Shown: piece after piece, positions 8,735-53,115 of the stretch
Layout of the letters: the number at the start of each line of letters is the position of its first letter
Numbering within the stretch: position 1 is the first letter of the stretch
NCBI RefSeq assembly: GCF_902652985.1
Contig: NC_047026.1
Location: forward strand, 2,703,307 to 2,767,306
Reading direction: 5' to 3'
Origin: Pecten maximus
Taxonomy: Eukaryota
Length of the DNA: 64,000 nt
Notes under the pieces: generated by a model
Databases searched by the model: none
What the model saw: only the letters and a program-made list of their open reading frames with translations
Told to the model about the DNA's origin: nothing
Position numbers and translations under genes: made by a program

Positions 8735-9220
8735 GTAAGTGGTGATAAAGTGTTTTTGTAAAAATATCTTATATTGTAAGTGATTAGTTTATAAAACGCA
8801 ATAGTCTTGCTGTAATTTGATGTAAATGTGTTTTGAGAAGTTTAAGTTTAATACAGCTGTTTATTTTATGCATAATAATTTTATTTTACACTTTTTGGTT
8901 TTATTTGAATATTATATGCATGTCTCCAGGAAAAATGATTTTAATGCATGGTATTATTTATCTATTGATATTTGTTTGGATACCTGGTAACTACATACAA
9001 TTCTTTGGTAGGGTTTAACCATTTTGTTTACTTACAGGTGTAATATTTAAGTAGTTCTATACAGAATTAGTTTCAATACTCACTTTAATCAGAGCAAACT
9101 TTCATGGACAACTAGCTAGCTATAAAATAGTTGTTTCCATTAAATGTTTGCCGCTGATTTTATCACCATCTCTTCGATTGAGTATGTGTATCATCAAACA
9201 TATTGATTTCATGGTTAAAA

Positions 9221-9630
9221 CAGAGTTGTTGCCCTTTGTGTAAAACATTACAGAGTTATTGCCCATTATGTAATACATTACAGAGTTATTGCCCCTTGTG
9301 TAAAACATTGCATAGTTATTGTCCTTTGTGTATATCATTACAGAGTTATTGCCCTTTGTGTATAACATTACAGAGTTATTGCCCTTTGTGTATAACATTA
9401 CAGAGTTATTGTCCTTTGTGTAAAACATTACAGAGTTATTGCCCTTGTGTATAACATTACAGAGTTATTGTCCTTTGTGTAGAACATTACAGAGTTATTG
9501 CCCTTTATGTATAACATTACAGAGTTATTGCCCTTTGTGTATAACATTACAGAGTTATTGTCCTTTGTGTAGAACATTACAGAGTTATTGCCCTTTGTGT
9601 AGAACATTACAGAGTTATTGCCCTTTGTGT
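9221..9630. repeat. 30-bp minisatellite (cattacagagttattgccctttgtgtataa), about 14 copies, in CDC23 intron 4
   Basis: The 30-nt period is visible. It generates the spurious CPLC-repeat ORFs 9203..9454 and 9439..9687. Confidence 0.9.
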
Positions 9631-9796
9631 ATTGAAGAGATCACAGAGAATATGGTACACTCAAAAATAAATGTCTTTTTCATCTGAAATAAGATGTCAT
9701 ATAAGCTCACAATTTACAAAACGATTTGTTTGCCTATTCGCTTAGCATATTGATTGTTACATTGGCAAAGAAGTATATCTGTAAACTATTCACCAG

Positions 9797-13834: not shown

Positions 13835-13943
13835 AGGTTGAGCGGAGAGACTACCGAGCATGGTACGGACTTGGACAAACCTACGAAATCCTCAAAATGC
13901 ACTACTACTGTCTCTACTACTACAGACAAGCTCAGAAACTCAG
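13835..13943 (+). CDS. CDC23: CDC23 exon 10 ([36 protein letters not shown])
   Basis: Acceptor gttttatcag| and donor ag|gtgagt. Matches human [36 protein letters not shown]. The donor at 13944 is the first copy of a 37-bp tandem array. Confidence 0.9.
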
Positions 13944-15070
13944 GTGAGTCACCATATCATTGTCAGGCTCAGAAACTCAGGTGAGTCACCATATCATTGT
14001 CAGGCTCAGAAACTCAGGTGAGTCACCATATCATTGTCAGGCTCAGAAACTCAGGTGAGTCACCATATCATTGTCAGACTCAGAAACTCAGGTGAGTCAC
14101 CATATCATTGACAGGCTCAGAAACTCAGGTGAGTCACCATATCATTGTCAGGCTCAGAAACTCAGGTGAGTCACCATATCATTGTCAGGCTTAGAAACTT
14201 GGGTGAGTCACCATATCATTGTCAGGCTCAGAAACTCAGGTGAGTCACCATATCATTGTCAGGCTCAGAGACTCGGGTGAGTCACCATATCATTGTCAGG
14301 CTCAGAAACTCAGGTGAGTCACCATATCATTTTCAGGCTTAGAAACTCAAGTGAGTCACCATATCATTGTCAGGCTCAAAAACTCAGGTGAGTCACCATA
14401 CCATTGTTAAACTCTAAAACACAGGTGGGTCACTATATCATTGTCAGACTCGGGTGAATCACCATATCATTGTCAGGCTCAGAAACTCAGGTGAGTCACC
14501 ATATCATTTTCAGGCTTAGAAACTCAAGTGAGTCACCATATCATTGACAGGCTCAGAAACTCAGGTGAGTCACCATATCATTGTTAGACTCTAAAACACA
14601 GGTGGGTCACTATATCATTGTCAGACTCGGGTGAATCACCATATCATTGTCAGGCTCAGAAACTCAGGTGAGTCACCATACCATTGTTAGACTCTAAAAC
14701 ACAGGTGGGTCACTATATTATTGTCAGACTCTGGTGAATCACCATATCATTGTCGGGCTCAGAAACTCAGGTGAGTCACCATATCATTGTCAGGCTCAGA
14801 GACTCAGGTGAGTCACCATATCATTGACAGGCTCAGAAACTCAGGTGAGTCACCATATCATTGTTAGACTCTAAAACACAGGTGGGTCACTATATCATTG
14901 TCAGACTCGGGTGAATCACCATATCATTGTCAGGCTCAGAAACTCAGGTGAGTCACCATATCATTGACAGGCTCAGAAACTCAGGTGAGTCACCATACCA
15001 TTGTCGGGCTCAGAAACTCAGGTGAGTCACCATATCATTGACAGGCTCAAAAATTTGGGTGTGTCACCAT
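13944..15070 (+). repeat. 37-bp tandem array (gtgagtcaccatatcattgtcaggctcagaaactcag), about 30 copies. It begins exactly at the exon 10 donor, and each unit repeats the exon's last 13 nt plus the GTGAGT donor
   Basis: The first unit is the authentic splice junction ctcagaaactcag|gtgagt. Confidence 0.95.
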
Positions 15071-15390
15071 ATTACTGTTAGTCCCAGAAATAGTATTCAG
15101 GTATATATATCACTTTCACTGTTACCACCATAAGAAAGTTAAAGTCAATTCACTGTTACCACCATAAGAAAGTCAATTTAATAATTTCTACCAAAAAATG
15201 GTTAAGAAATGTTCCTTCGAATATTTGGCAAAACTGAAAACAAAGTGAACCATTCAAAGCATGCTTTACAGTATTGATAATTCCTTTAGAATACATTCAG
15301 GTAATTTGTATGGAGGTATACATATGTTGACTCTTGTAGCTATAAACTATGGAATGATTAATTTCTCATGCTTGTAAATGTTCCTTTCAG

Positions 15391-15528
15391 ACCGAATGAC
15401 TCTCGGATGGTGATGGCCCTGGGAGAGACATACGAGAAATTAGAGAGGCTGCAGGAGGCTAAGAAATGTTTCTGGAAGGCCAACTGTATAGGAGATATGG
15501 AGGGAACTGCCCTCATCAAACTAGCCAG
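15391..15528 (+). CDS. CDC23: CDC23 exon 11 (RPNDSRMVMALGETYEKLERLQEAKKCFWKANCIGDMEGTALIKLA)
   Basis: Acceptor ttcctttcag| and donor ag|gtcagt. Matches human RPNDSRMLVALGECYEKLNQLVEAKKCYWRAYAVGDVEKMALVKLAK. The last 44 nt of the exon plus the donor form the first unit of a 56-bp tandem array. Confidence 0.9.
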
Positions 15529-16452
15529 GTCAGTAATAACTGTATAGGAAATATGGAGGGAAATGCCCTCATCAAACTAGCCAGGTCAGTAATAACTGTA
15601 TAGGAGATATGGAGGGAAAATCCCTCATCAAACTAGCCAGGTCAGTAATAACTGTATAGGAGATATGGAGGGAAATGCCCTCATCAAACTAGCCAGGTCA
15701 GTAATAACTGTATAGGAGACGTGGAGGGAACTGCCCCCATCAAACTAGCCAGGTCAGTAATAAGTATGTAGGAGATATGGAGGGAACTGCCCTCATCAAA
15801 CTAGTCAGGTCAGTAATAAGTATGTAGGAGATATGGAGGGAACTGCCCTCATCAAACTAGCCAGGTCAGTAATAACTGTATAGGAGACATGGAGGGAAAT
15901 GCCCTCATCAAACTAGCCAGGTCAATAATAACTATGTAGGAGATATGGAGGGAACTGCCCCCATCAAACTAGCCAGGTCAGTAATAAGTATGTAGGAGAT
16001 ATGGAGAGAAATGCCCTCATCAAACTAGCCAGGTCAGTAATAACTGTATAGGAGATATGGAGGGAAATGCCCTCATCAAACTAGCCAGGTCAGTAATAAC
16101 TGTATAGGAGATATGGAGGGAAATGCCCTCATCAAACTAGCCAGGTCAGTAATAACTGTATAGGAGATATGGAGGGAACTGTCCTCATCAAACTAGCCAG
16201 GTCAGTAATAACTGTATAGGAGATATGGAGGGAACTGTCCTCATCAAACTAGCCAGGTCAGTAATAAGTATGTAGGAGACGTGGAGGGAACTGCCCTCAT
16301 CAAACTAGCCAGGTCAGTAATAAGTATGTAGGAGATATGGAGGGAACTGCCCTCATCAAACTAATCAGGTCAGTAATAAGTATGTAGGAGATATGGAGAG
16401 AAATGCCCTCATCAAACTAGCCAGGTCAGTAATAACTGTATGGGAAATATGG
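15485..16452 (+). repeat. 56-bp tandem array, about 17 copies. It begins 44 nt before the end of exon 11, and each unit is the exon's 3' end plus the GTCAGT donor plus 6 nt of intron
   Basis: The unit tgtataggagatatggagggaactgccctcatcaaactagccag|gtcagtaataac repeats with a 56-nt period. Confidence 0.95.
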
Positions 16453-18745
16453 AGGGATCTTTCTCAAATTTCATATGTAGGTTCCCCTTGGTGCCTAGTT
16501 ATGCATATTGCGTTTTGAGACCAATCTGAAAACAACATGGCCGACAGGCAGCCATCTTGGATTTTGACAATTGAAGTTTGTTATCGCTATTTCTGAGAAA
16601 GTACTGAAGGGATCTTTCTCAAATTTCATATGAAGGTTCCCCTTGGTGCTTAGTTATGCATATTGCGTTTTGAGACCAATCGGAAAACAACATGGCCGAC
16701 AGGCAGCCATCTTGGATTTTGACAATTGAAGTTTGTTATCACTATTTCTGAGAAAGTACTGAATGGATCTTTCTCAAATTTCATATGTAGGTTCCCCTTG
16801 GTGCTTAGTTATGCATATTGCGTTTAGAGACCAATCCGAAAACAACATGGCCGACAGGCAGCCATCTTGGATTTTGACAATTGAAGTTTGTTATCACTAT
16901 TTCTGAGAATGTACTGAATGGATCTTTCTCAAATTTCATATGTAGGTTCCCCTTGGTGTCTAGTTATGCATATTGGGTTTTGAGACCAATCTGAAAACAA
17001 CATGGCCGACAGGCAGCCATCTTGGATTTTGACAATTGAAGTTTGTTATCGCTATTTCTGAGAAAGTACTGAAGGGATCTTTCTCAAATTTCATATGAAG
17101 GTTCCCCTTGGTGCCTAGTTATGCATATTGCGTTTTGAGACCAATCGGAAAACAACATGGCCGACAGGCAGCCATCTTGGATTTTGACAATTGAAGTTTG
17201 TTATCACTATTTCTGAGAAAGTACTGAAGGGATCTTTCTCAAATTTCATATGTAGGTTCCCCTTGGTGCTTAGTTATGCATATTGCGTTTTGAGACCAAT
17301 CCGAAAACAACATGGCCGACAGGCAGCCATCTTGGATTTTGACAATTGAAGTTTGTTATCACTATTTCTAAGAATGTACTGAATGGATCTTTCTGAAATT
17401 TCATATGTAGGTTTCCCTTGGTGTCTAGTTATGCATATTGGGTTTTGAGACCAATCTGAAAACAACATGGCCGACAGGCAGCCATCTTGGATTTTGACAA
17501 TTGAAGTTTGTTATCGCTATTTCTGAGAAAGTACTGAAGGGATCTTTCTCAAATTTCATATGAAGGTTCCCCTTGGTGCCTTGTTATGCATATTGCGTTT
17601 TGAGACCAATCCGAAAACAACATGGCCGTCAGGCAGCCATCTTTGATTTTGACAATTGAAGTTTGTTATCGCTATTTCTGAGAATGTACTGAATGGATCT
17701 TTCTGAAATTTGATATGTAGGTTTCCCTTGGTGCCTAGTTATGCATATTGCGTTTTGAGACCAATCAGAAAACAACATGGTCGACAGGCAGCCATCTTGG
17801 ATTTTGACAATTGAAGTTTGTTATCACTATTTCTGAGAAAGTATTTAAGGGATCTTTCTCAAATTTCATATGTAAGTTTCCCTTGGTGCCTAGTTATGCA
17901 TATTGCATTTTGAGACCAATCAGAAAACAACATGGCTGACAGGCAGCCATCTTGAATTTTGACAATTGAAGTTTGTTATCGCTATTTCTGAGAAAGTACT
18001 GAATGGATCTTTCTGAAATTTCATATGTAGGTTTCCTTTGGTGCCTAGTTATGCATATTGCGTTTTGAGACCAATCAGAAAACAACATGGTCGACAGGCA
18101 GCCATCTTGGATTTTGACAATTGAAGTTTGTTATCACTATTTCTGAGAAAGTACTGAATGGATCTTTCTGAAATTTCATATGTAAGTTTCCCTTGGTGCC
18201 TAGTTATGCATGTTGCATTTTGAGACCAATCGGAAAACAACATGGCCAACAGGCAGCCATCTTGGATTTTGACAATTGAAGTTTGTTATCGCTATTTCTG
18301 AGAAAGTACTGAAGGGATCTTTCTCAAATTTCAAATGGAGGTTCCCCTTGGTGCCTCGTTATGCTTATTGCATTTTGAGATCAATTGGAAAACAATATTT
18401 CTGACAGACTGCCATCTTGGATTTTGACAATTGAAGTTTGTTATCTCTATTTCTCAAAGTACTGAATGGATCTTTCTCAAATTTCATAAGTAGGTTCCCC
18501 TTGGTCCCATGTATTGCATTTTTGGACCAGTCTGTCCTGAAAACAACCTGGCAAACAAACAGCCATTATCGTTAAATCTCAAATTTCTTATATAGCTAGG
18601 ATTCCCTTGTTTGAAAAGTACTGGAGGGATGTCTCAATTTGCACAGATTAGTAAAATGAAGGGAAAAGTAGAGAAAAGATCAATCTGACATGGAACCTAT
18701 GAAGATCATTCAATGGTGGGCGCCAAGATCCCTCTGGGATCTCTT
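16453..18745 (+). mobile_element. Satellite-bearing composite element: about 13 copies of a 154-155-bp satellite plus a roughly 250-bp tail ending in a GATCCCTCTGGGATC hairpin
   Basis: The period is visible (gggatctttctc recurs at 16455, 16609 and 16764). The terminal sequence cattcaatggtgggcgccaagatccctctgggatct is shared, reverse-complemented, with the elements at 43893, 49865 and 51757. Confidence 0.8.
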
Positions 18746-19849: not shown

Positions 19850-20240
19850 AATTGAAACAGAATGTAGTTAATGCTTAAATAAGCCCATGCCTGGTAAACA
19901 GAATATAGTGTAATGCTTAAATAAGCCCATGCCTGGTAAACAGAATGTAGTGTAATGCTTAAATAAGCCCATGCCTGGTAAACAGAATATAGTGTAATGC
20001 TTAAATAAGCCCATGCCTGGTAAACAGAATATAGTGTAATGCTTAAATAAGCCCATGCCTGGTAAACAGAATGTAGTGTAATGCTTAAATAAGCCCATGC
20101 CTGGTAAACAGAATATAGTGTAATGCTTAAATAAGCCCATGCCTGGTAAACAGAATATAGTGTAATGCTTAAATAAGCCCATGCCAGGTAAACAGAATGT
20201 AGTTAAATGCTTAAATAAGCCCATGCCTGGTAATAAGCCC
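19850..20240. repeat. 42-bp minisatellite, about 9 copies, in CDC23 intron 13
   Basis: aagcccatgc recurs at 19881, 19923 and onward. It generates the spurious ORF 19868..20242 (the MGLFKH repeat). Confidence 0.9.
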
Positions 20241-20400
20241 ACCCTGGTCTATGGCAGTTTATGTGTTGGCCCACTGGGTTGATTACAGGATAAATACGGT
20301 AATAATTAACAATTATAGCTTTTATACAAGTTTAGAGAAGAAAGATGTAGTTGCCTGGTAATTAATCTAAAAGTGAGTTTAACCAATTTTTCACCTGCAG

Positions 20401-25115: not shown

Positions 25116-25230
25116 TTAAACATGACATACCCTATTGAAGACTCTTGCTCTGAGACGATTCAGGGAGTAATCTTCGTCTCGTTTCTTTACATACTTCATG
25201 GCCTGCACTTCAGGGAGTTTCTTGTACAAC
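25116..25230 (-). CDS. Giant gene terminal coding exon ((R)LYKKLPEVQAMKYVKKRDEDYSLNRLRARVFNRVCHV*)
   Basis: Acceptor ttctctcag|. The stop TAA is at 25116-25118, matching ORF 25116..25316. LPEV and NRLRA.VF are conserved ALMS-motif positions. Confidence 0.65.
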
Positions 25231-25566
25231 CTGAGAGAAAAGATTTTGCATAAATTTACACCAAAATCATTAATGATTACTTCAGATAATTCAACCCAAT
25301 GAAATAAATGTTCCAATTGTATATTTTATTTTGTTTTGCTGACGATAGAATTCCTAGAAACTTGGGTCAGTAAAGATGGAAAACGTTGCCTTTACAAGTA
25401 CAGAGTGTATTTTTATTCTTTTTTTTTTTTTATAAATATTTTACAATTAAGAACTTGCTTGATTAATTTATATACATTAAATGTCTATTCATGTTACAAC
25501 TTGCCACAATATTTATGCTTGAATTATTAAAATTTAATGAAATAGAAGAAAATCTTTTAAACCAAC

Positions 25567-25630
25567 CTCTTGGTTATTTCTTTCATTTCCTTCTTGGACA
25601 TGGATCGTCTTTTTGGCTTGTGTAGATTTT
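25567..25630 (-). CDS. Giant gene exon ((E)NLHKPKRRSMSKKEMKEITK)
   Basis: Acceptor atttccag| and donor ag|gttggt. The phase is consistent. NLHKPKRRSMSKKEM parallels ALMS1 NLFKPKERCISEKEM. Confidence 0.55.
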
Positions 25631-25872
25631 CTGGAAATGATACAAATGTAAATCTAAAGTTATCAGAATGTCAAAAATAAATAATTTTTCAAAGATGGTG
25701 ATAAATTACTAGCGCCTATATGTGTCCAACAACAGTCTTTATATTAGATCTAGTGATTCGTTCGCTAGTAAAATATGATTCTTGACTACAAAACTGATTG
25801 CATTCATATTGACTATAAATGCCCTGGCCAGGCAGTTCAATGCTTAAGTATTGGGTTGTTGGCTTCACTTAC

Positions 25873-26050
25873 CACTATAAGGATGTGCGTCGGGGTTCGA
25901 CTCTTTCTTGTTGCCTTGGTTGTCAAACAGTTCCTTTCGCTCTTGTTCCAAGTAATGCTGCAGTTGGCGCTCGTGTGCTGCCAACAGGACTCTCTTCTGG
26001 CGCTCACCAACCCGAGATATCGTGTTTGGTTTGAAAGTCTTAAAGGCCTC
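25873..26050 (-). CDS. Giant gene exon carrying the start of the ALMS-like motif (EAFKTFKPNTISRVGERQKRVLLAAHERQLQHYLEQERKELFDNQGNKKESNPDAHPYS)
   Basis: Acceptor tttctttacag| and donor g|gtaagt. SLQEAF..KP..I.R..ER resembles the start of the ALMS-motif consensus. Confidence 0.65.
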
Positions 26051-26213
26051 CTGTAAAGAAATGGTATTCATGCGCTTATAAATACCATCTAAGAAATGTG
26101 TTTCTGACTCTCCAGTTCTAGAATTTTTAGCTAAACTTTTAATAATTTTCTATTTAAATGTATAATTTATATTTACAATTTATAATATTATAATTAACAA
26201 GTATTTCACTAAC

Positions 26214-26494: not shown

Positions 26495-26915
26495 CTGAAA
26501 CATTAAACACAACTAGTAAATAACAGTTATGATATTTTACAATATTTCTATAATATTCATGCATGTTGTTTTTCGACCATTTCTGGGAAGTTTTTTTTTC
26601 TTAATGCTTTACAATGATATCAAGACAAAAAAATGGTGTTTTCTGTTAAATTGTATATGTTTGAAAAAATGAAGTAGGTAATTTTTTTAGAAAAAATATC
26701 ATGACTTTTAACAGTGCTTCCTTGAAAATTGTCATAAGAAAATTTAGGGTAGATACAAATGTAGTGTAAGGAAACTGGAAACATATTATTTCTGTTTATC
26801 AGTTGTTCTGAGCTCAAACATAATTTTAACAACCTATTTTTAGATTAATTAGTTACAGGTTTGTTTAATGACTACATATCTATGCCTATTGCTAGGTTTG
26901 GCCTTAACAACTTAC

Positions 26916-28811
26916 TGTTAGGACTGTCCTGGAGTTTGGCTATACAGGTGTCTTCCGGAGTTTCCGGAGTAAACATCCGAGATTTAGGAGGTGGGACTGC
27001 CTTGGACATGTATCCATAATCAATGTCCGTCTTTGGAGATGGTGACCTTGGCCTCCTCCTAACCTCCTTTGACCTGTCGGGTGACATGCTTATCTCAAAT
27101 GATGTTGTCCTCTTGTTTTCCTGTGACTTTGACCTTGACCTTGACCTTAGAGGTGAACGTGATGATGCAGTACTTTTGTGAGCTGACCTTTGCCTAATAG
27201 GAGAGCGTGTGGTTGACCTGGTGGGTGAGGTCGAGATATTCTTATGCCGTCTCTCTGGTGACATCAGAGGAACTGGGAATGACCCCTCTGTCGTTGTGAG
27301 AGGGGATATAGGGGCTTGTCTGGATAGCCTCCGACACCATTGTGACCTTCCCAGATTTTTTGCTGCGTTGTCGAGGTGGACTGACATGTATGGGAGAAGG
27401 ATACATGGTTGACACAGACTTGTACTTTCGTGACGATGGTGACCTCGATTTCCTTGGCTTTTCAAACTCGTCCACATCTATACCATTATCCTCCATCTGT
27501 GCTAAAAACTCTTCCACGTTTTCTTTATTTCTGCGGTTGAGTTTCGGTTCCTGGTAGATATCGGCGGTACTCGTCTTCGTTTTCTTGTTTTTCTGTTTTC
27601 CTTTCTTTTCACTGCTGAACTTTTCTCCTCTTTGTTTGGCTGAGAACGGCCGATGAAAAATGCTGTCTTCATTTTGCGACTCTGAATCTTCTGTTTGTAC
27701 AGGGCCTTTCATTGGGACCCTCCCTCTTGTTGGGCCCCTACCCTTATCCAGAAATGCTACTTGTCGACTTTTATTTGGAGGCTGGAAGTGTACATCGGTG
27801 CTACTATCTTTTGATGAAGTATCGGCGACAGCAACATTGGAATCTCCCTGCGAGTTGAGAGTCGAATCTGTATCTAAAAGAGTGGACGAATCTGTCATGG
27901 ATATAGACGTTGTTGACGACACCAAGTCTAGTTCAACTCCAATAGCTTTGTCAGAAAGTCTGCCCTTCTGTTTAGCATTGAGCAACATTTCTAATTTCTT
28001 GAGTTTGTCCATTCTACGAATCTCCTTCTTTCTCTCTTTGTCAATTTTATCCCGTTGGTGTATGACCTTGTCGTGGAGTTTAGCCATGAGCGGATCGATG
28101 ACATGACGGCGCCGGTTACGTTTGGCCTTTAACATCAGATCAGATTCATTCAATGCACTCGGTGTTGTTGCTTCAAAGCTTGTGTCCTCTGGTATAGAGT
28201 AAAGTGTGTCTGCACTCTCTCCAAGCTTCTGGGCTCGAGCTGGTTTTGCTTCCTTGTTTCGGTTATTATTCTCCTTATTTTTCTTTTCTTTTTCTGCACG
28301 CTTCTTCTTTTCCTGATGAGCGAGGATCTCGGCGTAACTGCCATTGCTCTCGTCATCTCCACTCAACCTCTTCCTATACTCGGCTTCACGTCTCAATCGC
28401 TCGGCCTCTTTTCGTTGCCTTGCTGATTTTTCCACTTCCTGTTTCTGAGTTGTCTGCCCTTCATCTGCCTCTTCATTCAATGTGTTAAGCTCTTTCATCA
28501 ACCGGTTCTCCTTAGCACGTTCATACGTAACATCGTCCATGTACTTCTGGACAACATGCTTTGTGGGGTTCTTAATTAAGCTCGTAAGTGTATCCATCCG
28601 CGGGGTGTTCATACTGCTCTCGCTGGCATTGCTGGGATCCACATCCTTAAACCTCTGCCACATGTCGTTGATGTTTGGATGGACTGACTCACGATATTCC
28701 TTCTCAAGACTCTCACGAAGGATGACAACGCGCTTGCTGGGAGGCCTCTTGTCGAACTCTTCATCATATTCACTCTCATCGTCCACCAAGGGAACAAATT
28801 TGTGTTGAGAC
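26916..28811 (-). CDS. Giant gene large exon ((R)SQHKFVPLVDDESEYDEEF... coiled-coil K/E/R-rich segment ...SP/RS-rich tail ...LQDSPN)
   Basis: Acceptor atctgtag| and donor a|gtaagt. ORFs 27242..28789 and 26872..27477 overlap by 235 nt in frames offset by 1, a second frame break. The length is 1896 nt, so the boundary phases require a net shift of 1 nt. Confidence 0.6.
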
Positions 28812-29189: not shown

Positions 29190-29894
29190 CTGTGTCAGAC
29201 AATGAACAAGCATGTTATATCATGTGTTAATCTTAGTAAGCAATACTTATAGCAAAGAAAATATGTCACACTGATGTGATGTCATAGATAATTTATGATG
29301 TCATAATAAAAACATGGAAATCACACAATTGTCCATAGGGGAAAATATACCATCCAAGTCGAAAATGGCCTATCTTATGTAGAAATTGATTTGAGTTCTA
29401 ATTTACATTACGCATAAATATGAGTCAAGTGATCAACAGAATCTTACACTTGTGGATATACAAACTGGACATGAGGAATTGAAATTATACATGTTTACAA
29501 ATAATATTAAAGTGATTAAACATTTAACAACAAAGTAGAAAACTTTGGAGATAGAAAACACTTCAAATCTGAAATAAAAATTTAAGCCATGTTAATCTGG
29601 GCCGTTTTCGTTTTTGCGGTCCGAACGGTTAATCAAGTTGGACCGGTGTTGTTCGTTTATGAAATTAAGACGGACCTGGTGATTTTATATTGTTTTTAGA
29701 CGAGCCTTGACAAAGACTTCCAAGGCCTGTATTAACATTTGCAGGTCTGTCAAGATATATGTCTGAAATATTACATTTAGAAAACTGACAAACCGGTTTG
29801 TCCGCATAAACGAACAGGCCCATGCAGTGTCTGGGTTAAGGGGAGATAATCACACTACCCAGCACACAGAGGTAATATATATGTGTATAATCAC

Positions 29895-31335
29895 CTGCTC
29901 AAGCTCCCTAAACTGCCCATCTCCCTCTGGGTCCGTGTAAGCAGATCCTCGAGGATTATCGCGGTCCGAGTTCCTACCCATCACCTCAGCGAAATCTGCC
30001 CCTGGCTCCAAGGGTCGGGCTATCAGCCCTGGGCCTGGTTCAAGAGGTCTGTCTATCCGCGGTTCAAGTGGGTGGTCAGCACCTGGATTGTAGCCTCGGT
30101 CCACTGGTTGTCCAGTTTTATCACAGTAGGTGGCCGTGACCTCAACTCTGCCATCAGCCCTGGTTTTGATTTGCCCACGATGGACTCATGAGTCGCTGAC
30201 GCTCAGCCTGGGTGACATACTCTACTGGTGCATTATCTCCCCTTGATCTGTACCGACCATCAATACCACCGTTATCTGATGTGCCCCGTCCAGTCTCTCG
30301 TCTATTTTGATAGATCTCCCTATCAGAGTGGTAGTTATCTCTTGCAGACGGGCGCTGATAGATGTCTCTTGCATCTAGTTCTCTGTAATGTTCTCCTGGT
30401 TCAAGTGACCTTGACCTCAATCTAGGATTGTAATCAATTTCTTTGTCCAAAGGATCAAATTTCTCTAGATCTTTATAGTCTTTTCCTCTCTCCAAAGATC
30501 TCTGTTGAAGCCTCTCTTCCATGTACTTTGCCATATGATCCTGGGCTTGACCTGGCTTGGGGCTTCCCCTGCCGCCAGCAATCGCTGGGGAATCCATTGT
30601 CGTATGATGAGAGAAAATTGGAGATGGTTGGCATGACAACTCCATTAACCTTGTGTTGTGAACTGGTGAGGAATTCCTGTGACTCTCTGGACTGAGGGCA
30701 ATAAGATCTGTCTCTGACTTTGACCTTGACCTTGTGGCCCCGACAGGGTCCTGTTGGTAGTAGTTCCTTCCTTCAGAGTACCTGTCCAAAGGGTAGACAG
30801 ACAGGTCACCCTCCCGGCCTGGGTGTGGGGTGAAGATGTCGCCAGGGTCCGACCTTGTAGTGACAGACAGGGGATCGTCTTTACTTTCTGTACCACTGTT
30901 AATTCTCTCCTTGGGTCGCGTCTCTGTGGAGGTCAGTCCTGAATAATCTGATCCAATACTTCTATATCTATGACTGCTGGTTCCTGTGTCAGCTGCGAAT
31001 CGGTTGCCAAGGAAGTCATCCCCAGGCACCAGACGGCGTTCATCCCTGTGCTGACTTTCTGATGCCAGTCTGGAGGGATTGTAACTCCCTTGATATTCTC
31101 GGTCTTTCAAGGGCAGATCACTCCGTGAACGAAGGTCCGCAGAAGTTGGTTTTGAGCTCCTGTATGGCACAACCTCATCCTGGTCACTTTCCTGTCTCCC
31201 GGGACGACCTGAGAGGAGTTCAAGGCCACTGTCTGGACGTTGTTCTGTTGAAACAGTGTTATCTCCCCTTGAATTGCCGGAATGCATGGATCTCCTGTCT
31301 AAGCCACTGTCTGTCCCAGACTTATCCCGGTCATC
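29895..31335 (-). CDS. Giant gene large exon (DDRDKSGTDSGLDRRSMHSGNSRGDNTV...YVTQAERQRLMSPSW... then (D/H)RPLEPG repeats ...FRELEQ)
   Basis: Acceptor tgttgacag| and donor cag|gtgatt. ORFs 30154..31287 and 29850..30104 sit in frames offset by +1 around 30104-30156, so the exon holds a frame break: either a 1-bp indel or a very short intron (for example a 55-nt candidate, 30146..30200). Confidence 0.6.
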
Positions 31336-32049: not shown

Positions 32050-32189
32050 CACCAAGGATTTCTCCTCAATAGTGGAGAGTCCATCAGATGAAGGTTTGTG
32101 ATTACTGTAGATACCGCCAGATTTAGGGCCGTCCAGTCTTGATCCCAGGCAATGGGAAGGGAATGATGGCCCAATCGCGTCATCGGAAC
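32050..32189 (-). CDS. Giant gene exon ((G)SDDAIGPSFPSHCLGSRLDGPKSGGIYSNHKPSSDGLSTIEEKSLV)
   Basis: Donor gtg|gtaagt. Acceptor tgttgtag| (phase 1). An alternative acceptor ttcttcag| at 32219 would add LIVDVAHVV. Confidence 0.55.
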
Positions 32190-33840
32190 CTACAACATGG
32201 GCAACGTCGACAATTAGCTGAAGAAACAACAGTTCTGTGGTCTACATACACATCGACCATTCTGGCCCGAATTAGCACAGTGTGCTTGCAAAGAATGGTG
32301 TACTTATTGAAACTATTCTACGAGATAAGTTCTGTGTCAAATCAGGGTTGAAAGGAAAATCATGTATTTTTTTTTTTTTTTTTTTTCAGAAATTGAAAAC
32401 TATGGATAATATCGGTAGATCAAGTCACACAAGCAACTTTTTCAAATGCGTTGAGCCTTTGATCAAGCATACCCATCCCCTTTCTTGTTGGAAAAAGTGT
32501 GTCTATGTTTGAGCAGTCACACTTAAAAAGAAATGAATACAACATAATTTGGAGTTTGCCTGAAAGTTGTGTTCAGACCACCATTTCTCTGATCTCCAGC
32601 AACGGGTAATCTTATTTGGTTGACAAATAAATATTTAACAAATAAGGAGCAAAATTATTTTACATTGAAATTAAAACAAAATAGCCGAACAGTTTTTTGC
32701 GACTTAATTCATTCTACATTTAATCTTGTAGTAGCTAATATCTCAGATAGAGGCAGCAGTTTCCAATTAATAACTTTGCGATATTCACGGTACCACTGTA
32801 ATTATTTTATTAAGTTGACAGATATTACACATGTAAATATGAGGTTATTATTAATAGGCTATATAGATACATGCGAGTTAAGCACAATTATACAGTCAAG
32901 TTAAAAAGACAATAAATATAAAAGAAGTTAAGAACATTTTCCTAATTATTAACAATAAATCAAATACATCTCCTGCTGTGTTAAAATTAATTTTGCCAAA
33001 TTTTTTCTCTCTCTTTCTGAAATGAAAATTAATCAACCTGTAATAATTGTCACACTTTTCCATCCCTTTTAAGCTTTAAAAACATGCATCCAGTACAAAG
33101 TTATGTATATACACACAAATATACATAAACAGGGCCTACAGGATAAAACACATACTGATATTATACATAAACTGGGCCTTCTCATACAAATACTAGTGCA
33201 GACTGTCAGCTGAAAGAATTACTTATATTACCAGGAATATACGAAATGTACATATAGACCTGCCTACGGTCAGATATACCTGGTATGAGTTTAAAGATGA
33301 CCTACTCAAACACTTGCTATTATAAACAGGGCTTAATTCAGAGGAATATGAACAGACAGCTGAAGTTATTAAATATTAATAAGCAGACACCTGTCAAGGG
33401 TGTTTCAGGATATCTAATTGTATGGGATTAATATTGATCAATTCTTAGCTTTCGTAGCTCAACCTATACCTTCGTATCTACAGTAACAGACTGGACCTAT
33501 TGAATATATCTAATAAACACCAAGTTATACAAAACTGACAGATATTGTTTACCATGCTCATTACTGGAAATGTATGAATTATCGTGGGTTCCAAATTTGA
33601 TATTTAAAATCAGTTGAATTATACATTAAACAGACAGACAGTTATCGTCAGTAAATTACCTATCAATATTCTATAAAGATTAGACACAACTTTTGTAAAT
33701 ATAATTTTACCAATTTAAATTTGTTAAAATCTGTTATGTCACAATTTCTACGAAGCGGAAATAAAAACGACATTTGTTACAGTTACATGTAGCGATTATT
33801 GTTAGGCCTTGTATTATAGAAACAACCAACAACGGGATAC

Positions 33841-34665
33841 CTCGGGGGTCCTTCCACGAGACGCTGTGTCGTCCACCGACATAGTCACTATGGAAACCAT
33901 AATGACGTTCCTTGTAATCACCATGACGACCTAGACCATTCTGATAATCTTTGCGATAATCTCTCATGTAATCAGAAGAAAAGTTAGTTTTTCCGTGATC
34001 ACGCTGGTATTCCTTCCTCTCGGAGTTATAAACATGTGATTTACGATGATCGTTTTCCGAATGAATATCACCGACAACATCGAGTTTGCTATTATTTTGT
34101 TTCTCGTAATCACGTTTGTGTTTATCACTGTCGTATTTGCGATAATCAGAATAAGTTCCAGATTTGTAATCCAATTTCTGTGTATAATCGTTAAATTTGT
34201 TAGGGGTGTCGACCGACGACGTATAACCGTTATATTTGGTTTGTGTGTCGACTGACGAGGTAGAACCGTTATATTTATTCTGGGTATTGGCCGATGGTGT
34301 ATAACCATTATATTTGGTTTTGGTGTCGACCGATGGCGTACAACCGTTATATTTGTTATGGGTGTCGACCGATGGCGTATAACCGTTATATTTGGTTTTG
34401 GTGTTGACCGATGGTGTATAACCGTTATAATTGGTTTTGGTATCGGCCGACAGCGTAGAACCATTATATTTGTTCTGAGTATCGCCCGATGGTGTATAAC
34501 CGTCATATTTGCTTTTGTAATCAGTGGGATAGCTCTTGTAAGTATCGGCGGGAGTGGTCTGGTCGTCACGGAGATATTTGAAAGTATCGTCACTATGGTC
34601 CCAGTTTCTGTATGCGTCGTCTGTAGTACAATAAAAATATTCTCCTGTACTGGCCACAGAAATAA
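33841..34665 (-). CDS. Giant gene exon: a Tyr-rich region with about 9 tandem 12-aa repeats (KYNGYTPSVDTxT), followed by a DY/RK-rich stretch
   Basis: ORF 33734..34657. Donor cga g|gtatcc at 33835-33840 with phase 1. The overlapping ORF 33964..34593 in the other frame hits a stop before the donor. The 5' boundary is uncertain; a weak acceptor attgtag| at 34666 keeps phase with the upstream exon. Confidence 0.5.
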
Positions 34666-36102
34666 CTACAATGTCTACTCTACACTTATAATTAAATACG
34701 TAACTTCCGTTAACGTTCTATTGAATTATTCGAAGAAGGGCAATTATATAAATAAACATTGTTTTAGATCTACTGGCAATCAGTCATTTAGGAGGGAAAT
34801 AATTTTAAGAAAATTTCCTGAAAGAAAATGTCAATCTTAATTTGCCAGCTTAAAAGTCTACAAGTCTCCAACTTAAATCAGCACATACACTCTCTCAACT
34901 TTTTTCACAACATAATCGAAATCCCAATACATAACAACTTTTCAAAGATACAAGATTAGTCCACTAATTTTGCAAGACTTTAATCTCACAGTACTGGGTA
35001 AAGCTTTAATCAATGAAAGTGAAAAGTGAATTGCACAGCGCAGTGCCTTAGCATTTATCTCGGAGTAGTTACACCTATCAATCAGTCTTTAGACCTGTCA
35101 ATCATGATGCCAGGAAACGAAAAAGTCTTTAAATCTCACTAAAAAGCCCAAGCTGCAATGAAGCTATTTAACTAATACTAGGGGTGTAACCCTTGGATTT
35201 TGAAAATGGGAATTATCACTTGGAATGGTATTCATGATTTTTCCTGAGCTTTAATATATGTCCAATACATTGTATACTGACTTTCATTATACTGGCATTA
35301 ATTAGCAGAACCAGAAATGTACCCAGGTAAGACTTAATGAATTTAAAAGGAAGCAGATCTAGATTGAAAAGACAATCAAATCACAAATAAAAACATAATT
35401 TGAAACAACTTGTGTGCTATTAGCACAAATGACTCAAACAAAAATGTTTGTTTTTGAAACATAAAAAAAAAAAAAAAAATGAAAAAAATAACCATGAACA
35501 AATTAGAATTATACCAACCATCACTCAGGATGTAAAATGGGTTATCTAAGAAAAAGAAATGAAAGAATGGCTCATTCCGAGGTCATTTACACACTGACAC
35601 AGTGATTTGAAACTGGTACAAGGAACATCGGGGGAAGGATGACATGCTTGGAGTGTAAAATTAAAACCAGGTTTCTGGGGTCAAATCAGAAAAATTACGG
35701 AAAAAAATTCACAAAATTCAATCATGTCCAACAGATGAAAGCAATTTCAAATCTTTTAAGAAGTATTTCACACATAAGGAAAGGTCAAATGAAATTTATA
35801 TTTGGTTTGTATACTGACTAGAGTATAAACACAAAGATTTGATATACAACAACAGAGATATTATGTACCTAGCAAGGTTAACTACAGATGATACGTATAC
35901 AATTGTATATATAATATACACAGATATACTGAAGTAGAGAAGCCAAATTATAGGTATAATTTTTCAATTTCATAATGTCAAAATCTGTTTTTCAACATAA
36001 ATTAAAGAAAGTGAATTCGAAGAGGCCAATTATAATTTCATAAAAAAATGTATCTTTTTAAATTGTTACTGTGATCTACCAGGTAATTTTATTTTTTGTC
36101 TA

Positions 36103-36289: not shown

Positions 36290-36329
<40 letters not shown>

Positions 36330-36348
36330 AAAATAACCACGTTTACAG
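36103..36348 (+). mobile_element. MITE copy 3, with its internal C5 expanded to C37 (36292-36328)
   Basis: The terminal inverted repeats are intact and flanked by ta...ta. Confidence 0.65.
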
Positions 36349-37140
36349 TATCTTAAATAAAAAGAAGTTAATTACTTGAACCTCTAAGAAAACTTGGACT
36401 CTGCATGTCACATGCCTCCAGAGATTTTCAGTATAAGATAATATTATAACTATAGTATAGAATATGTACCTGTGCTTGTATGAATATATTATGTATGATA
36501 CTTAAATACATAAAGTGAAGTTGATTTGTTCAATTTAAAATTTCTTATCACTCAGATTGGAACATAGGAAGGATTAGCAGAGAAAGAAGGAGTGATAGAC
36601 AGAGGGAGATTCACCTGAGTGTGAGCTTTCCATGGTAGAATTTACAGCTGCAAAGAATCGGCAATGGAAGATATATTACCAGTTTATACAACATGCGAGT
36701 CAGAGGATGAAGTGTCCAGTAAATAGTGTGTAAAGATGATATACCATGCACTTCTTTATCCATCAACTACATCATGAACATTCCTAAGAAGTAATGGCTA
36801 AACAAATGACTCATGCATGCTGTACCAAAAAGAAACAGGACAGAAATTTGTGTTTTTGCAAAGCAGAACCACACAGCAAAATATTTCTATATCAAACCCC
36901 TTATCACTCACAAGATCACTATTACCTATGGGCCTCTATAACAAATCCCTGAGGACCTGTGAGTTCACTATTGGCATATAACGAACTACTGTGGATCTTT
37001 AAGTTCAATATGGATCTGTAAAAAATCCCTGAAGATCTGTGGGTTCACTTTTAGCCTGTAACAAATCCCTGAGGACTTATGAGTTCACTATGGGCCCATA
37101 ACAAATTACTGAGGATATGCAAGTTCACTATGGGTCTAAG
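36349..37140 (+). repeat. Segmental repeat unit U, copy 1 (about 790 bp), immediately 3' of MITE copy 3. It ends in a 40-bp tandem sub-array
   Basis: More than 95% identical to 38432-39230. Confidence 0.8.
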
Positions 37141-38210: not shown

Positions 38211-38354
38211 CAGGGGGAAATTACGCTAATTACAAACCGGAAGATCACTTTTACCCACAAAAAATATATACAACAACCAAAACCCACACCCCCCCCCCCC
38301 CCCCCCCCCCCCCACCCCCACCCCCCCCCCCACCCCCCCCCCCCCCCCCACCAC

Positions 38355-38412
<58 letters not shown>

Positions 38413-38431
38413 AAAATAACCACGTTTACAG
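38211..38431 (+). mobile_element. MITE copy 4, 5'-truncated, with an internal C-rich tract of about 120 nt (38289-38411)
   Basis: Its 3' half and the 3' inverted repeat match copy 3. Confidence 0.55.
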
Positions 38432-39500
38432 TATCTTAAATAAAAAGAAGTTAATTACTTGAACCTCTAAGAAAACTTGGACTCTGCATGTCACATGCCT
38501 CCAGAGATTTGCAGTATAAGATAATATTACAACTATAGTATAGAATATGTACTTGTGCTTGTATGAATATATTATGTATGATACTTAAATACATAAAGTG
38601 AAGTTGATTTGTTCATTTAAAATTTCTTATCACTCAGATTTGAACATAGGAAGGATTAGCAGAGAAGGAAGGAGTGATAGACAGAGGGAGATTCACCTGA
38701 GTGTGAGCTTTCCATGGTAGAATTTACAGCTGCAAAGAATCGGCAATGGAAGATATATTACCAGTTTATACAACATGCAAGTCAGAGGATGAAGTGTCCA
38801 GTTAATAGTGTGTACAGATCATATTCCATGCACTTCTTTATCCTTCAACTACATCATAAATACTCCTAAGAAGTAATGGCTAAGCAAATGACTCATGCAT
38901 GCTGTACCAAAAAGAAACAGGACAGAAATTTGTGTTTTTGCAAAGCAGAACCACACAGCAAAATATTTCTATATCAAACCCCTTATCACCCATATAGATC
39001 ACTATTACCTATGGGCCTCTATAACAAATCCCTGAGGACCTGTGAGTTCACTATTGGCCTGTAACGAACTTCTGAGGACCTGTGAGTTCACTTTTGGCCT
39101 ATAATCAATCCCTGAGGATCTGTGAGTTCACTATGGGCCTATAACAAACTACTGAGAGTCTGTGAGTTCACTATTGGCCTGTAATGAACTTCTGAGGATC
39201 TGTGAGTTCACTATGGGCCTGTAATAAATCCTTGAGAGTCTGCGAGTTCACTATGGGCCTGTAACAAACTCCTGCAGATCTGTAAGTTCACTATGGGCCT
39301 ATTACAAACTTCTGTGGATCTGTGAGTTCACTTTTGGCCTATAATCAATCCATGAGGATCTGTGAGTTCACTATGGGTTTGAAACAAATCTCTAAGAACC
39401 TGTAAGTTCACTATGGTCCTAAATTGAACTTTTTTGGACCCCTAAGTTCAATTAAAGCCTATAACGAGCCCATGAGGATCTACAAGTTCACCATTAATGA
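38432..39500 (+). repeat. Segmental repeat unit U, copy 2, plus an expanded 40-bp tandem array (ctgaggatctgtgagttcactatgggcctataacaaact, about 12 copies, 38995-39500)
   Basis: Direct comparison with 36349-37140. Confidence 0.8.
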
Positions 39501-39993: not shown

Positions 39994-40088
39994 CTGTGTG
40001 TGTACTTTCTACTGTGGCGATGCTGTCCATCAGTGACCCAGAGTCGTCATTGTCCTCGGTATAGTACAGGTCACGGCTCCCGTAGGGT
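39994..40088 (-). CDS. Giant gene exon ((R)PYGSRDLYYTEDNDDSGSLMDSIATVESTHT)
   Basis: Acceptor ctctgacag| and donor g|gtatgt, in the frame of ORF 39887..40108. Its phase is consistent. Confidence 0.55.
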
Positions 40089-43892: not shown

Positions 43893-44420
43893 TTGGTGCC
43901 CACCATTGAATGATCTTCATTAGCTCTATGTCAGACTGACCTTCTAACTACGTTTCCCTACTTTCTTCTTTTCCTCTTAATAATCTGATAACAAGAACAA
44001 GTGGAACCTATTTGTGAAGTTTGAGGAATATCCCTCCAGTACTTTTCAAGAAATAGCGATGAACAAATTTCAATTCTCAAAATTCAAGATGGTCGCCTCA
44101 GCCATTTTGCTTTCCTGATCAAATATTAAAATCAAATTGGCATAAATAGGGACCAAGGGGTCTTAAACATCAAATTTGAGGAGTATCCCTCCAGTTCTTT
44201 TCAGGAAATAGTGACTACAAACTTCAATTCTCAAAATTCAAGATGGTCGCCTCAGCCATTTTGCTTTCCTGATCAAATATTAAAATCAAATTGGCATAAA
44301 TAGGGACCAAGGGGTCTTAAACATGAAATTTGAGGAGTATCCCTTCCAGTTCAGATGGCTGTCTGTCAGCCATTTTGTTTTTCTGTTCAAAAATCCAAAT
44401 TGAATTGGCACAAATAAGGA
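43893..44420 (-). mobile_element. Degenerate copy of the satellite-bearing element: terminal hairpin end plus about 2.5 diverged satellite units
   Basis: It carries the atcccaaagggatcttggtgcccaccattgaatgatc terminus and units resembling aatagcgatgaacaaatttcaattctcaaaattcaagatggtcgcctcagccattttg. Confidence 0.55.
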
Positions 44421-47439: not shown

Positions 47440-48660
47440 AGGTATGAATAAATAGACTGAGATTTCTGATTATACCAATAAATAAATAAAATAATTACAC
47501 CGAGATATCAATACACTCTGATTACACCAATAAATAAATAAAATAATTACACCGAGATATCAATAAACTATGATTACACCAATAAATAAATAAAATAATT
47601 ACACCAAGATATCAATACACTCTGATTACACCAATAAATAGATAAAATAATTACACCGAGATATCAATACACTCTGATTACACCAATAAATAAATAAAAT
47701 AATTACACCAAGATATCAATACACTCTGATTACACCAATAAATAGATAAAATAATTACACCGAGATATCAATACACTCTGATTACACCAATAAATAGATA
47801 AAATAATTACACCGAGATATCAATACACTCTGATTACACCAATAAATAAAATAATTACACCGAGATATCAATACACTCTGATTACACCAATAAATAGATA
47901 AAATAATAACACCCAGATATCAATACACTCTGATTACACCAATAAATAAATAAAATAATTACACCGAGATATCAATACACTCTGATTACACCAATAAATA
48001 GATAAAATAATTACACCAAGATATCAATACACTCTGATTACACCAATAAATAGATAAAATAATTACACCAAGATATCAATACACTCTGATTACACCAATA
48101 AATAAATAAAATAATTACACCAAGATATCAATACACTCTGATTACACCAATAAATAGATAAAATAATTACACCGAGATATCAATACACTCTGATTACACC
48201 AATAAATAGATAAAATAATTACACCGAGATATCAATACACTCTGATTACACCAATAAATAGATAAAATAATTACACCGAGATATCAATACACTCTGATTA
48301 CACCAATAAATAGATAAAATAATTACACCAAGATATCAATACACTCTGATTACACCAATAAATAGATAAAATAATTACACCGAGATATCAATACACTCTG
48401 ATTACACCAAGAAATAGATAAAATAATTTCACCGAGATATCAATACACTCTGATTACACCAATAAATAGATAAAATAATTACACCGAGATATCAATACAC
48501 TCTGATTACACCAATAAATAAATAAAATAATTACACCGAGATATCAATACACTGAGATTTCTAATTACACTGATACCGATAAATAAAAAAAATAAATACA
48601 CCAAGAAATAAATAAACTGAGATTTATGATTACACCGATAAATAAATAAAATAAATACAC
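47440..48660. repeat. 52-bp minisatellite (48-bp variants also occur; cgagatatcaatacactctgattacaccaataaataaataaaataattacac), about 23 copies
   Basis: The period is visible (cgagatatca at 47501 and 47553). Confidence 0.9.
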
Positions 48661-49864: not shown

Positions 49865-50455
49865 TGTTCTATCCCTTCAGTACCTTCTGTAAAATAGCGA
49901 TAACAAACTTCAATTGTCAAAATACAATATGGCTGCCTGTCGGCCATTTTGTTTTCCGATTAGTCTCAAAATTCAATATCCATACCTAGGCACCAAGGGG
50001 AACCTACATATAAAATTTGAGAAAGATCCCTTCAGCACTTTCTGAGAAATAGCAATAACAAACTTCAATTGTCCAAATCCAATATGGCTGCCTGTCGGCC
50101 ATATTGTTTTCCGATTGGTCTCAAAATGCAATATGCATAACTAATGTTAGCACCAAGAGGAACCTACATATGAAATTTGAGAAAGACCAATTCAGTGCTT
50201 TCTGAGAAATAGCAATAACAAACTTCAATTGTCAAAACCTAAGATGGCTGCCTGTCGGCCATATTGTTTTCCGATTGGTCTCAAAATGCAATATGCATAA
50301 CTAGAAACCAAGAGAAACCTATATATGAAATTTTAGAAGATCCCTTCAGTACTTTGAGAAATAGCGATAACAAGAATTGTTTACGGATGGAGGGACGGAC
50401 GGACCACGGACGCAGGGCGATTTGAATAGCCGATGGTGGGTTAAAAACACCTGGG
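49865..50455 (-). mobile_element. Satellite-bearing element, short copy: about 3.5 units of the 155-bp satellite, then a GGAC-repeat and cagggcgatttgaatagcc terminus
   Basis: Reverse complement of the 16453-18500 satellite. Its end is shared with 52995-53110. Confidence 0.75.
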
Positions 50456-51756: not shown

Positions 51757-53115
51757 AAGAGATCCCAGAGGGATCTTGGCGCCCACCATTGAATGATCTT
51801 TATAGGTTCCATGTCAGATTGATCTTTTCCCTACTTTTCCCTTCCTCTAAGTCTTACTTATCTGTGTAAATTCAGAAACAGCCCTCTAGTACTATTCAAA
51901 CAAGGGGAACCTATATATAGAATTTAAGATTTAGCTATAATGGCTGTCTGTCGGCCATGTTGTTTTCGTATTGGTCCCAGTATGCAAAACTAGGCACTGA
52001 GGGGAACCTACATATGAAATTTGAAAAAGATCCCTTCAGTACTTTCACAGAAATAGCGATAACAAACTTCAATTGTCAAAATCCAAGATGGCTGCCTGTC
52101 AGCCATGTTGTTTTCTGATTAGTCTCAAAATGCAATATGCATAACTAGGCACTGAGGGGAACCTGCATATGAAATTTCAGAAAGATCCCTTCATTACTTT
52201 CACAGAAATAGCGATAACAAACTTTAATTGTCAGAATCCAAGATGGCTGCCTGTCGGCCATGTTGTTTTCTAATTAGTCTCAAAATGCAATATGCATAAC
52301 CAGGAACAAAGAGGAACCTGCATATGAAATTTGAGAAAGATTCCTTCAGTACTTTCACAGAAATAGCGATAACAAACTTCAATTGTCAAAATCCAAGATG
52401 GCTGCCTGTCGGCCATTTTGTTTTCCGATTGGTCCCAAAATGCAATATGCATAACTAGGCACCAAAGGGAACCTATATATGAAATTTGAGAAAGATCCCT
52501 TCAGTATTTCCTCAGAAATAGCGATAACAAACTCAAATTGTCAAAATCCAAGATGGCTGCCTGTCGGCCATGTTGTTTTCCCGATTGGTCCCAAAATGCA
52601 ATATGCATAACAAGGCACCAAAGGGAACCTACATATGAAATTTGAGAAAGGTCCCTTCAGTATTTCCTCAGAAATAGCGATAACAAACTCAAATTGTCAA
52701 AATCCAAGATGGCTGCCTGTCGGCCATGTTGTTTTCTGATCGGTCCCAAAATGCAATATGCATATCTAGGCACCAAGGGGAACCTACATATGAAATTTGA
52801 GAAAGATCTCTTCAATACTTTCTCAGAAATAGAGATAACAAACTTCAATTGTCAAAATCCAAGATGGCTGCCTGTCGGCCATGTTGTTTTCCGATCAGTC
52901 CCAAAATGCAATATGCACAACTAGGCACCAAGGGGAACCTACATATGAAATTTGAGAAAGATCCCATCAGTACTTTCTCAGAAATAGCGATAACAAGAAT
53001 TGTTTACGGACGGAGGGACGGACGGACGGACGGACGGACGGACGGAGGGACGGACGGACGACGGACCACGGACGCAGGGCGATTTGAATAGCCCACCATC
53101 TGATGATGGTGGGCT
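51757..53115 (-). mobile_element. Satellite-bearing element, apparently complete copy
   Basis: It starts with (A)|TCCCAGAGGGATCTTGGCGCCCACCATTGAATGATC, runs through about 7 satellite units (51900-52990), then a (GGAC)n tract and cagggcgatttgaatagc, and ends in an 11-bp-stem hairpin CCCACCATCtgatGATGGTGGGcTAA. Confidence 0.75.

Follow-up and report, generated by a model that had tools for sequence, protein, structure and literature searches.

The 64,000 nucleotides of Pecten maximus DNA analysed here (the window) are rich in satellite sequence, have a GC content of approximately 30-47%, and carry a large gene on the minus strand. Three consecutive exons encoding the C-terminal end of this gene lie within 25119-26149 (open segments 25868-26149, 25560-25670, and 25119-25325). 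They match the Pfam family ALMS_motif (PF15309) with E-values of 2.7e-11, 1.9e-3, and 4.6e-7, at profile positions 1-61, 67-91, and 88-123 of 133, respectively. Judged by this C-terminal motif, the host gene is of the ALMS1, CEP295, or C10orf90 type, with no paralogue singled out, and the centrosomal type that the original prediction had assumed for it is supported by the same three exons. The large open segments of the gene contain no Pfam domain, and a named orthologue was not recovered among its homologues, for which the NCBI name is "uncharacterized protein".

A chain of conserved exons emerged when all open segments of the window were placed on orthologous loci. Six of these loci (L001-L006) were found with the 515-aa exon of the window, and a further one, L007, is Argopecten irradians CM084274.1:41683830-41716115 (GCA_041381155.1). 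Two small conserved exons of the chain, both on the minus strand, frame the feature under study. The upstream exon, 40088-39994, encodes (K)PYGSRDLYYTEDNDDSGSLMDSIATVESTHT(G), ends with RPYGSRDLYYTEDNDDSGSLMDSIATVESTHT, and shares 94% amino acid identity with L007:9941-10045; its acceptor is in phase 2 and its donor, ACACAG/GTATGT, in phase 1. The downstream exon, 32189-32050, encodes (G)SDDAIGPSFPSH...EEKSLV between a phase 1 acceptor (ttgtag/GT), which is also present in L001, L002, and L004, and a phase 0 donor (GTG/GTAAGT). A Tyr-rich open reading frame (ORF) lies in the intron between them. The phase 1 donor at 39994 fits the acceptors at 34620 and 32189 equally; the flanking exons are thus compatible without the Tyr-rich ORF, for which a symmetric phase 1-1 cassette is the only option left. 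Further upstream, the donor at 59062 is in phase 2, as is the acceptor at 40088, which makes it plausible that the gene also includes the large exons at 59-62 kb. A direct splice from the 59062 donor to an acceptor at 34649 had been considered and was dropped once the conserved small exon at 40088-39994 had come to light.

Among the large upstream exons, the ORFs 60007-62043 and 59058-60035 overlap at 60007-60096, which is best explained by an intron of about 88 nt in phase 0-0, with the donor CATCAG/GTAGGG and the acceptor ccctgag/AGTGCA. The 678-aa exon contains another in-frame 39-nt repeat on the minus strand at 60669-60750 (2.1 copies, 93% match), which encodes ...DRPLLDSRPLGTMDRPLLESRPLGSMDRPL... 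and is a further 13-residue unit in the host gene. Downstream, two +1 frameshifts are seen relative to Argopecten irradians and other orthologues, at about 27285 (CCC versus CC) and about 30160 (GGG versus GG). Both fall at short homopolymers in the minus-strand exons 26872-28789 and 29853-31335, where what is a single ORF elsewhere becomes a pair of overlapping ORFs. These exons otherwise have a dN/dS of 0.05-0.15, and the frameshifts are either indel errors of the assembly or disabling mutations in this copy of the gene. The Tyr-rich exon itself is intact.

The Tyr-rich exon spans 34620-33841 on the minus strand, is 780 nt long, and is in phase 1-1; it is supported by homology to Argopecten, by dN/dS, and by coding potential. 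Its inclusion adds 260 residues (D-DAYRNWDHSDD...SWKDPR) between ...VESTHT and GSDDAIGP.... The acceptor has its AG at 34622-34621, preceded by tatttttattgtactacag, and a good polypyrimidine tract; approximately 50 nt of the upstream intron (34621-34671) are conserved with Argopecten. The donor GTATCC follows CGAG and reads from 33840 to 33835 on the minus strand, the final exon base being 33841. It is weak, lacking G at position +5, and is identical in Argopecten. The original prediction had placed the 5' end at 34665, which is indeed one possible phase 1 acceptor, and had referred to forward frames; homology moves the exon start to 34620, and the coding sense is that of the minus strand. The acceptors at 34665 and 34644 are less likely than that at 34620, which is favoured by homology, by the polypyrimidine tract, and by the NCBI isoform X1 of Argopecten, whose exon starts at the homologous acceptor.

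The Tyr frame corresponds to the ORF 33734-34657 and is open from stop to stop over 33737-34717 (327 codons), while the longest other minus-strand open frame in the intronic space between 34.7 and 59 kb has 97 codons. The part of it that lies within the exon continues past the repeat array by about 360 nt on the 3' side and about 110 nt on the 5' side. As had been predicted, it alone reaches the GTATCC donor: a second sense frame is open over the repeat (ORF 33964-34593) and ends in a stop before the donor. The translated exon frame has no methionine before approximately residue 220, and the Tyr frame therefore cannot be a stand-alone gene. Two plus-strand ORFs, 34046-34255 and 34358-34840, were rejected on account of negative coding potential and frames with stops or with pN/pS above 1. 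The exon sequence matched nothing in Pfam or PDB, and a search of Rfam over 31.5-41 kb found no family. The region is single-copy within the 64-kb window, which makes an origin from a mobile element unlikely.

The exon contains a tandem array that Tandem Repeats Finder (TRF) places at 34182-34517, with a period of 39 nt, 8.6 copies, 78% matches, and a score of 362; a higher-order period of 117 nt, or three units, scores 415. The period is thus 39 nt and 13 amino acids, and not the 36 nt and 12 amino acids originally given, for which the accompanying motif, KYNGYTPSVDTxT, already had 13 letters. On the basis of TRF, register, and column consensus, eight well-preserved units of the form K-Y-N-G-Y-T-P-S-V-D-T-x-x occupy 34510-34199 on the minus strand. 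In order, they read KYDGYTPSGDTQN, KYNGSTLSADTKT, NYNGYTPSVNTKT, KYNGYTPSVDTHN, KYNGCTPSVDTKT, KYNGYTPSANTQN, KYNGSTSSVDTQT, and KYNGYTSSVDTPN, with pairwise identities of 67-92%. The array is flanked by a degenerate leading unit, ADTYKSYPTDYKS (34549-34511), whose YPTDY is kept in Argopecten, and by a degenerate ninth unit, KFNDYTQKLDYKS (34198-34160), with 51-59% nucleotide identity to the core units. The earlier count of about nine repeats was a fair one.

Y2, G4, T6, S8, and T11 are invariant in all eight units, and K1 and N3 are present in seven. The tyrosine at position 5 is found in five units and is replaced by serine in two and by cysteine in one; the expectation of two fixed tyrosines therefore holds for Y2 and fails for the second. 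Five of the eight units contain a Thr-Pro site, at the 13-residue spacing of the array. In composition the array is polar (T 19%, N 13.5%, S 11.5%), with few hydrophobic residues. A non-repeat tail follows at 34198-33842, also on the minus strand, and comprises 119 amino acids including the degenerate ninth unit. It is rich in D (13%), K (12%), Y (12%), R (9%), and H (8%), and matches the tract dense in DY and RK that had been described downstream of the repeat. The 260-residue insert as a whole contains Y 12%, D 12%, T 11%, S 10%, K 10%, and N 8.5%. The units follow one another head to tail, their period is divisible by three, their frame is open, and their copy number varies between lineages, all of which characterise a coding minisatellite.

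The introns of the gene and the rest of the window carry several other repeats. A family of satellite repeats of approximately 155 nt fills several introns, at 16453-18505, 44020-44352, 49871-50373, and 51940-52996, and also in the Argopecten intron downstream of the homologous exon (L007:17051-18700); it looks like a bivalve-wide satellite or a Helitron-associated repeat. A poly-C tract of 123 nt (38289-38411) adjoins a duplicated segment of 98.6% identity (36291-36500 and 38374-38583), and related 40-nt tandem arrays are present at 36926-37138 and 39009-39420. The duplicated segment and the paired arrays together suggest a tandem duplication of about 2 kb within the intron. There are also numerous other minisatellite arrays, whose periods are 35, 30, 37, 56, 42, and 52 nt, at 723-2625, 9220-9632, 13930-15090, 15482-16457, 19855-20233, and 47465-48553. 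Some minisatellites create long spurious ORFs, such as 9120-9428 and 19868-20242.

Argopecten irradians: The spliced flanking exons, used as a query, retrieved XP_069140868.1 (P0053), the Argopecten irradians "uncharacterized protein isoform X3", which is 73% identical. This isoform reads ...VESTHTGSDDAIAPSF... and is thus joined without the cassette exon. The 90% cluster of X3 also contains isoforms X2 and X1, and isoform X1 (XP_069140866.1) has a 148-residue insert exactly between VESTHT and GSDDAIAP. The insert starts with DRNWDHSDDTFKYLHDDQT... and ends with ...YQNGLGRHGDHRECPNGFQRNGGQITWKDLR, and is homologous to DAYRNWDHSDDTFKYLRDDQT...YQNGLGRHGDYKERHYGFHSDYVGGRHSVSWKDPR of the window. 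The isoforms X1-X3 are automated gene models of NCBI. The Argopecten exon lies at L007:13897-14340, is 444 nt long, and is bounded by the acceptor tgtactacag/AC and the donor CGAG/GTATCC, both as in the window; exon order and synteny are the same in L007 as in the window. These boundaries fix the acceptor AG of the window at 34622-34621 and the exon at 34620-33841, and the coding exon in the Tyr frame that the original prediction ended at the GTATCC donor is supported by this homologue with its matching splice sites.

The tail is the part best conserved with Argopecten (SDYMRxYRKxYQNGLGRHGD), with a blastn identity of 71% over 260 nt. The repeat is represented there by one unit, KYNVYTSDSHN (L007 13997-24), which is 86% identical to a unit of the window over 28 nt. 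As to the presence of the repeat in orthologues, which had been proposed as a check, isoform X1 has a homologous exon with a single KYNVYT unit, and the array is not shared. The L007 locus is split by NCBI into an "uncharacterized protein" ending with ...FKELEQVIIHLYKQSL and a downstream gene of 763 aa with the ALMS_motif, while the mRNA of another species (L003) spans both parts continuously. The split may be an artefact of annotation or reflect a short, intron-retaining isoform.

Other orthologues: L003 is a Logan contig of 4.2 kb (run SRR30522649) and the source of P0017. It represents a spliced mRNA of a distant orthologue that runs through to the ALMS motif and joins the homologue of exon 40088 directly to the next conserved exon, without the cassette. 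The stretches covered upstream of the next exon (6.3 kb in L001, 2.9 kb in L002, and 0.8 kb in L004) contain no Tyr-rich ORF and stop short of the upstream exon. On these sequences, the cassette exon may be restricted to pectinids. A word-indexed search for homologues of the exon came back empty, and HMMER over 1.84 billion representatives returned 31 hits, the best at 1e-37, with no true homologue among them. The hits were rejected as homologues because they are mutually unrelated (mucin-like, gag-like, phage-fibre-like, and vertebrate proteins) and match only through periodic repeats of about 13 aa of their own. The searches with the exon missed the Argopecten homologue because X1 is clustered under the representative X3, which does not contain the exon. 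Cassette exons in general are liable to be missed when, as here (P0053 / P0058), an exon-bearing isoform is stored under a 90% cluster representative that lacks the exon.

Over 146 alignable codons, the comparison of the exon with Argopecten gives a dN of 0.20, a dS of 0.97, a dN/dS of 0.21, and 64% amino acid identity, whereas the neighbouring exons have a dN/dS of 0.05-0.17 and 79-84% identity. By this measure the cassette is constrained, though somewhat less than its neighbours. Mean pairwise diversity among the eight units rises from 0.126 at the first codon position to 0.176 at the second and 0.316 at the third. The pN/pS among units is 0.37 in the Tyr frame versus 1.5-1.9 in the other sense frames, and apart from an antisense frame that contains stops, the Tyr frame is the only one with a low value. 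The variation among units thus indicates protein-level selection on the Tyr frame. With a codon model trained on the other exons of the host gene, the coding log-likelihood ratio (LLR) of the exon is +0.32 bits per codon, within the +0.26 to +0.58 of those exons, compared with -0.80±0.22 (maximum -0.29) for an intron null of 3000 samples. The non-repeat tail scores +0.34. The exon is also a GC island, with a GC fraction of 0.41 against 0.31 in the flanks.

The two species differ in the number of units, with 8-9 in the 780-nt exon of the window and one in the 444-nt exon of Argopecten; the difference in exon length, 336 nt, equals 8.6 units. The mean synonymous difference among units (pS 0.40) is below that between the species (pS 0.54), which fits amplification after the lineages split, although gene conversion could also lower pS among units. 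In this comparison of two species, unrooted by an outgroup, expansion of the array in the lineage of the window appears likelier than contraction in Argopecten. A single KYN-x-YT unit would have been amplified to 8-9 units of 39 nt through slippage or unequal exchange, and the amplified array would since have been maintained by selection on the protein.

The whole of this evidence is best accounted for by a genuine optional cassette exon of a pectinid ALMS-motif gene, in which one unit has been amplified and the insert serves as an isoform-specific module, a reading to which a probability of roughly 0.78 is assigned. The exon length of 780 nt is a multiple of three, the donor at 39994 and the acceptor at 32189 are both in phase 1, and isoforms with (X1) and without (X3) the exon are annotated in the Argopecten orthologue. 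Skipping would cost nothing in reading frame, since exons 40088-39994 and 32189-32050 join in frame directly. The neighbouring exons have the donors GTAAGT and GTATGT, whereas the weak GTATCC of the cassette is conserved in Argopecten, as is expected of a regulated exon. Splicing of the exon in Pecten maximus would follow the same pattern, judging from the annotation of the orthologue and the compatibility of the phases.

A constitutive exon in Pecten maximus, with the array as a fixed part of the protein that is always included, would agree with the good polypyrimidine tract, the intact ORF, and the purifying selection; it is nevertheless an unlikely alternative, if one to be taken seriously, in view of an orthologue annotated both with and without the exon, flanking exons that are phase-compatible in its absence, and a donor whose weakness relative to its neighbours has been conserved. 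It is far less probable that the region is an intronic pseudo-exon, a chance ORF held open by the repeat, or a decayed and unused exon. A period that is a multiple of three does keep frames open, with two sense frames open over the array; moreover, no homologue of the exon was found in the distant orthologues, and two neighbouring exons of this copy carry frameshifts. However, the open frame extends well beyond the array on both sides, codon usage is exon-like even in the non-repeat part, the splice sites are conserved, and the dN/dS of 0.21 is measured against a homologous exon that is annotated in Argopecten. Hardly credible at all is a separate nested gene for a secreted, adhesive Tyr-rich protein of the mussel foot kind, or a derivative of a mobile element. 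The tandem composition rich in K, Y, T, P, and S recalls adhesive decapeptide repeats, and one of the repeat-only hits (P0024) is a gag-like protein with a 13-aa repeat. Against this, the frame starts without a methionine or a signal peptide, the exon is on the same strand as the flanking exons of the host gene and in phase with them, its region is single-copy in the window, and all 31 database hits, from proteins unrelated to one another, are confined to the periodic part.

The optional exon could also differ in what its array does, and a folded repeat domain has been considered, in which each 13-aa unit would contribute a beta strand and an Asn-Gly turn to a meander or solenoid with a tyrosine ladder as a binding surface. 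Asn-Gly is a classic former of beta turns, and the units keep G4 without exception and N3 in seven cases out of eight. AlphaFold2, run on the single sequence, predicts a beta-strand meander for the array with one strand per unit, mostly of 8-10 residues, and turns at N-G-x-T, at a pLDDT of 52-58. On the other hand, the model is of low confidence (mean pLDDT 44.7, pTM 0.30, and no residue above 70), its tails are unstructured, the polar array offers few hydrophobic residues, neither Pfam nor PDB gave a match, and Argopecten manages with a single unit, all of which makes such a fold unlikely. In the preferred reading of an optional cassette exon, the insert would be an isoform-specific, probably disordered module of low complexity. 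With its period of 13 residues, the array would multiply Thr-Pro sites and tyrosines that act as "stickers", and the module would tune multivalent or phospho-regulated interactions of a centriole or cilium scaffold protein. This putative role is suggested by composition, and a part in phase separation is likewise putative.

Comparison with known systems: The nearest relative is the exon of Argopecten isoform X1, which shares its position between VESTHT(G) and (G)SDDAI, its phase 1-1, its splice-site sequences, and its DY/RK-rich tail. It differs in having 444 nt and one KYNVYTSDSHN unit, whereas the exon of the window has 780 nt and 8-9 units. In-frame expansion of a minisatellite in a disordered, alternatively spliced exon is a well-known kind of event and belongs to ordinary protein evolution. 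With the exon boundary and the repeat period corrected, the locus offers a clean and datable example of how a disordered scaffold protein may enlarge one of its optional exons, with one unit in one scallop and 8-9 units, still under selection at the protein level, in another.

Tyr-containing repeats of low complexity are known from the C-terminal domain (CTD) of RNA polymerase II, with its heptad YSPTSPS, and from FUS-type proteins with [G/S]Y[G/S] motifs. Like the scallop array, they consist of short tandem units with a fixed tyrosine and Ser/Thr-Pro, and they could be candidates for a functional analogy as multivalent segments tunable by phosphorylation. In contrast, they share no homology with the array and differ from it in unit length and context. 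The decapeptide repeats of mussel foot proteins, such as AKPSYPPTYK, belong to secreted proteins with signal peptides and DOPA chemistry. Both they and the scallop array are tandem peptides of a bivalve that are rich in K, Y, T, P, and S, but the array has a different consensus and lies in an internal exon of a gene of an intracellular, centrosome-type family. The resemblance to adhesive proteins seen in the original prediction is thus unsupported for an exon that has neither its own start codon nor a signal peptide and is in phase within an ALMS-motif gene.

The composition had also been called unusual in a centrosomal protein, a description that does not hold for this family, of which repeats are rather a characteristic: human ALMS1 has a large domain of tandem 47-aa repeats (PMC6327082). 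That domain is encoded by exon 8 and consists of about 34 copies of the unit. It is Ser/Pro-rich with little potential for secondary structure, has an unknown function, and appears to be specific to mammals (PMC6327082). Both the human domain and the scallop array are lineage-restricted tandem segments upstream of the ALMS motif. In contrast to the human domain, the array has units of 13 aa instead of 47 and 8-9 copies instead of about 34, is rich in Tyr, Thr, Asn, and Lys, and lies in an optional exon. ALMS1 and other proteins of the ALMS family were absent from all hits of the exon, which has no sequence similarity to the 47-aa repeat; any link between the two repeats would therefore be one of convergence. 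The literature library searched contained nothing relevant on ALMS1 of scallops. A bolder proposal, put forward only tentatively and rather improbable as a whole, is that ALMS-motif proteins gained tandem repeats independently in mammals (47 aa) and in the scallop lineage (13 aa), and that the scallop array is switchable between isoforms, with its copy number tuning the assembly of a centriole or cilium scaffold either as a Tyr-ladder beta-hairpin or as a Thr-Pro-regulated condensate segment. Next to human ALMS1, the scallop array gives another, independent case of tandem repeats in an ALMS-motif protein, and being smaller and switchable by splicing, it could be the more tractable of the two for asking what such repeats do.
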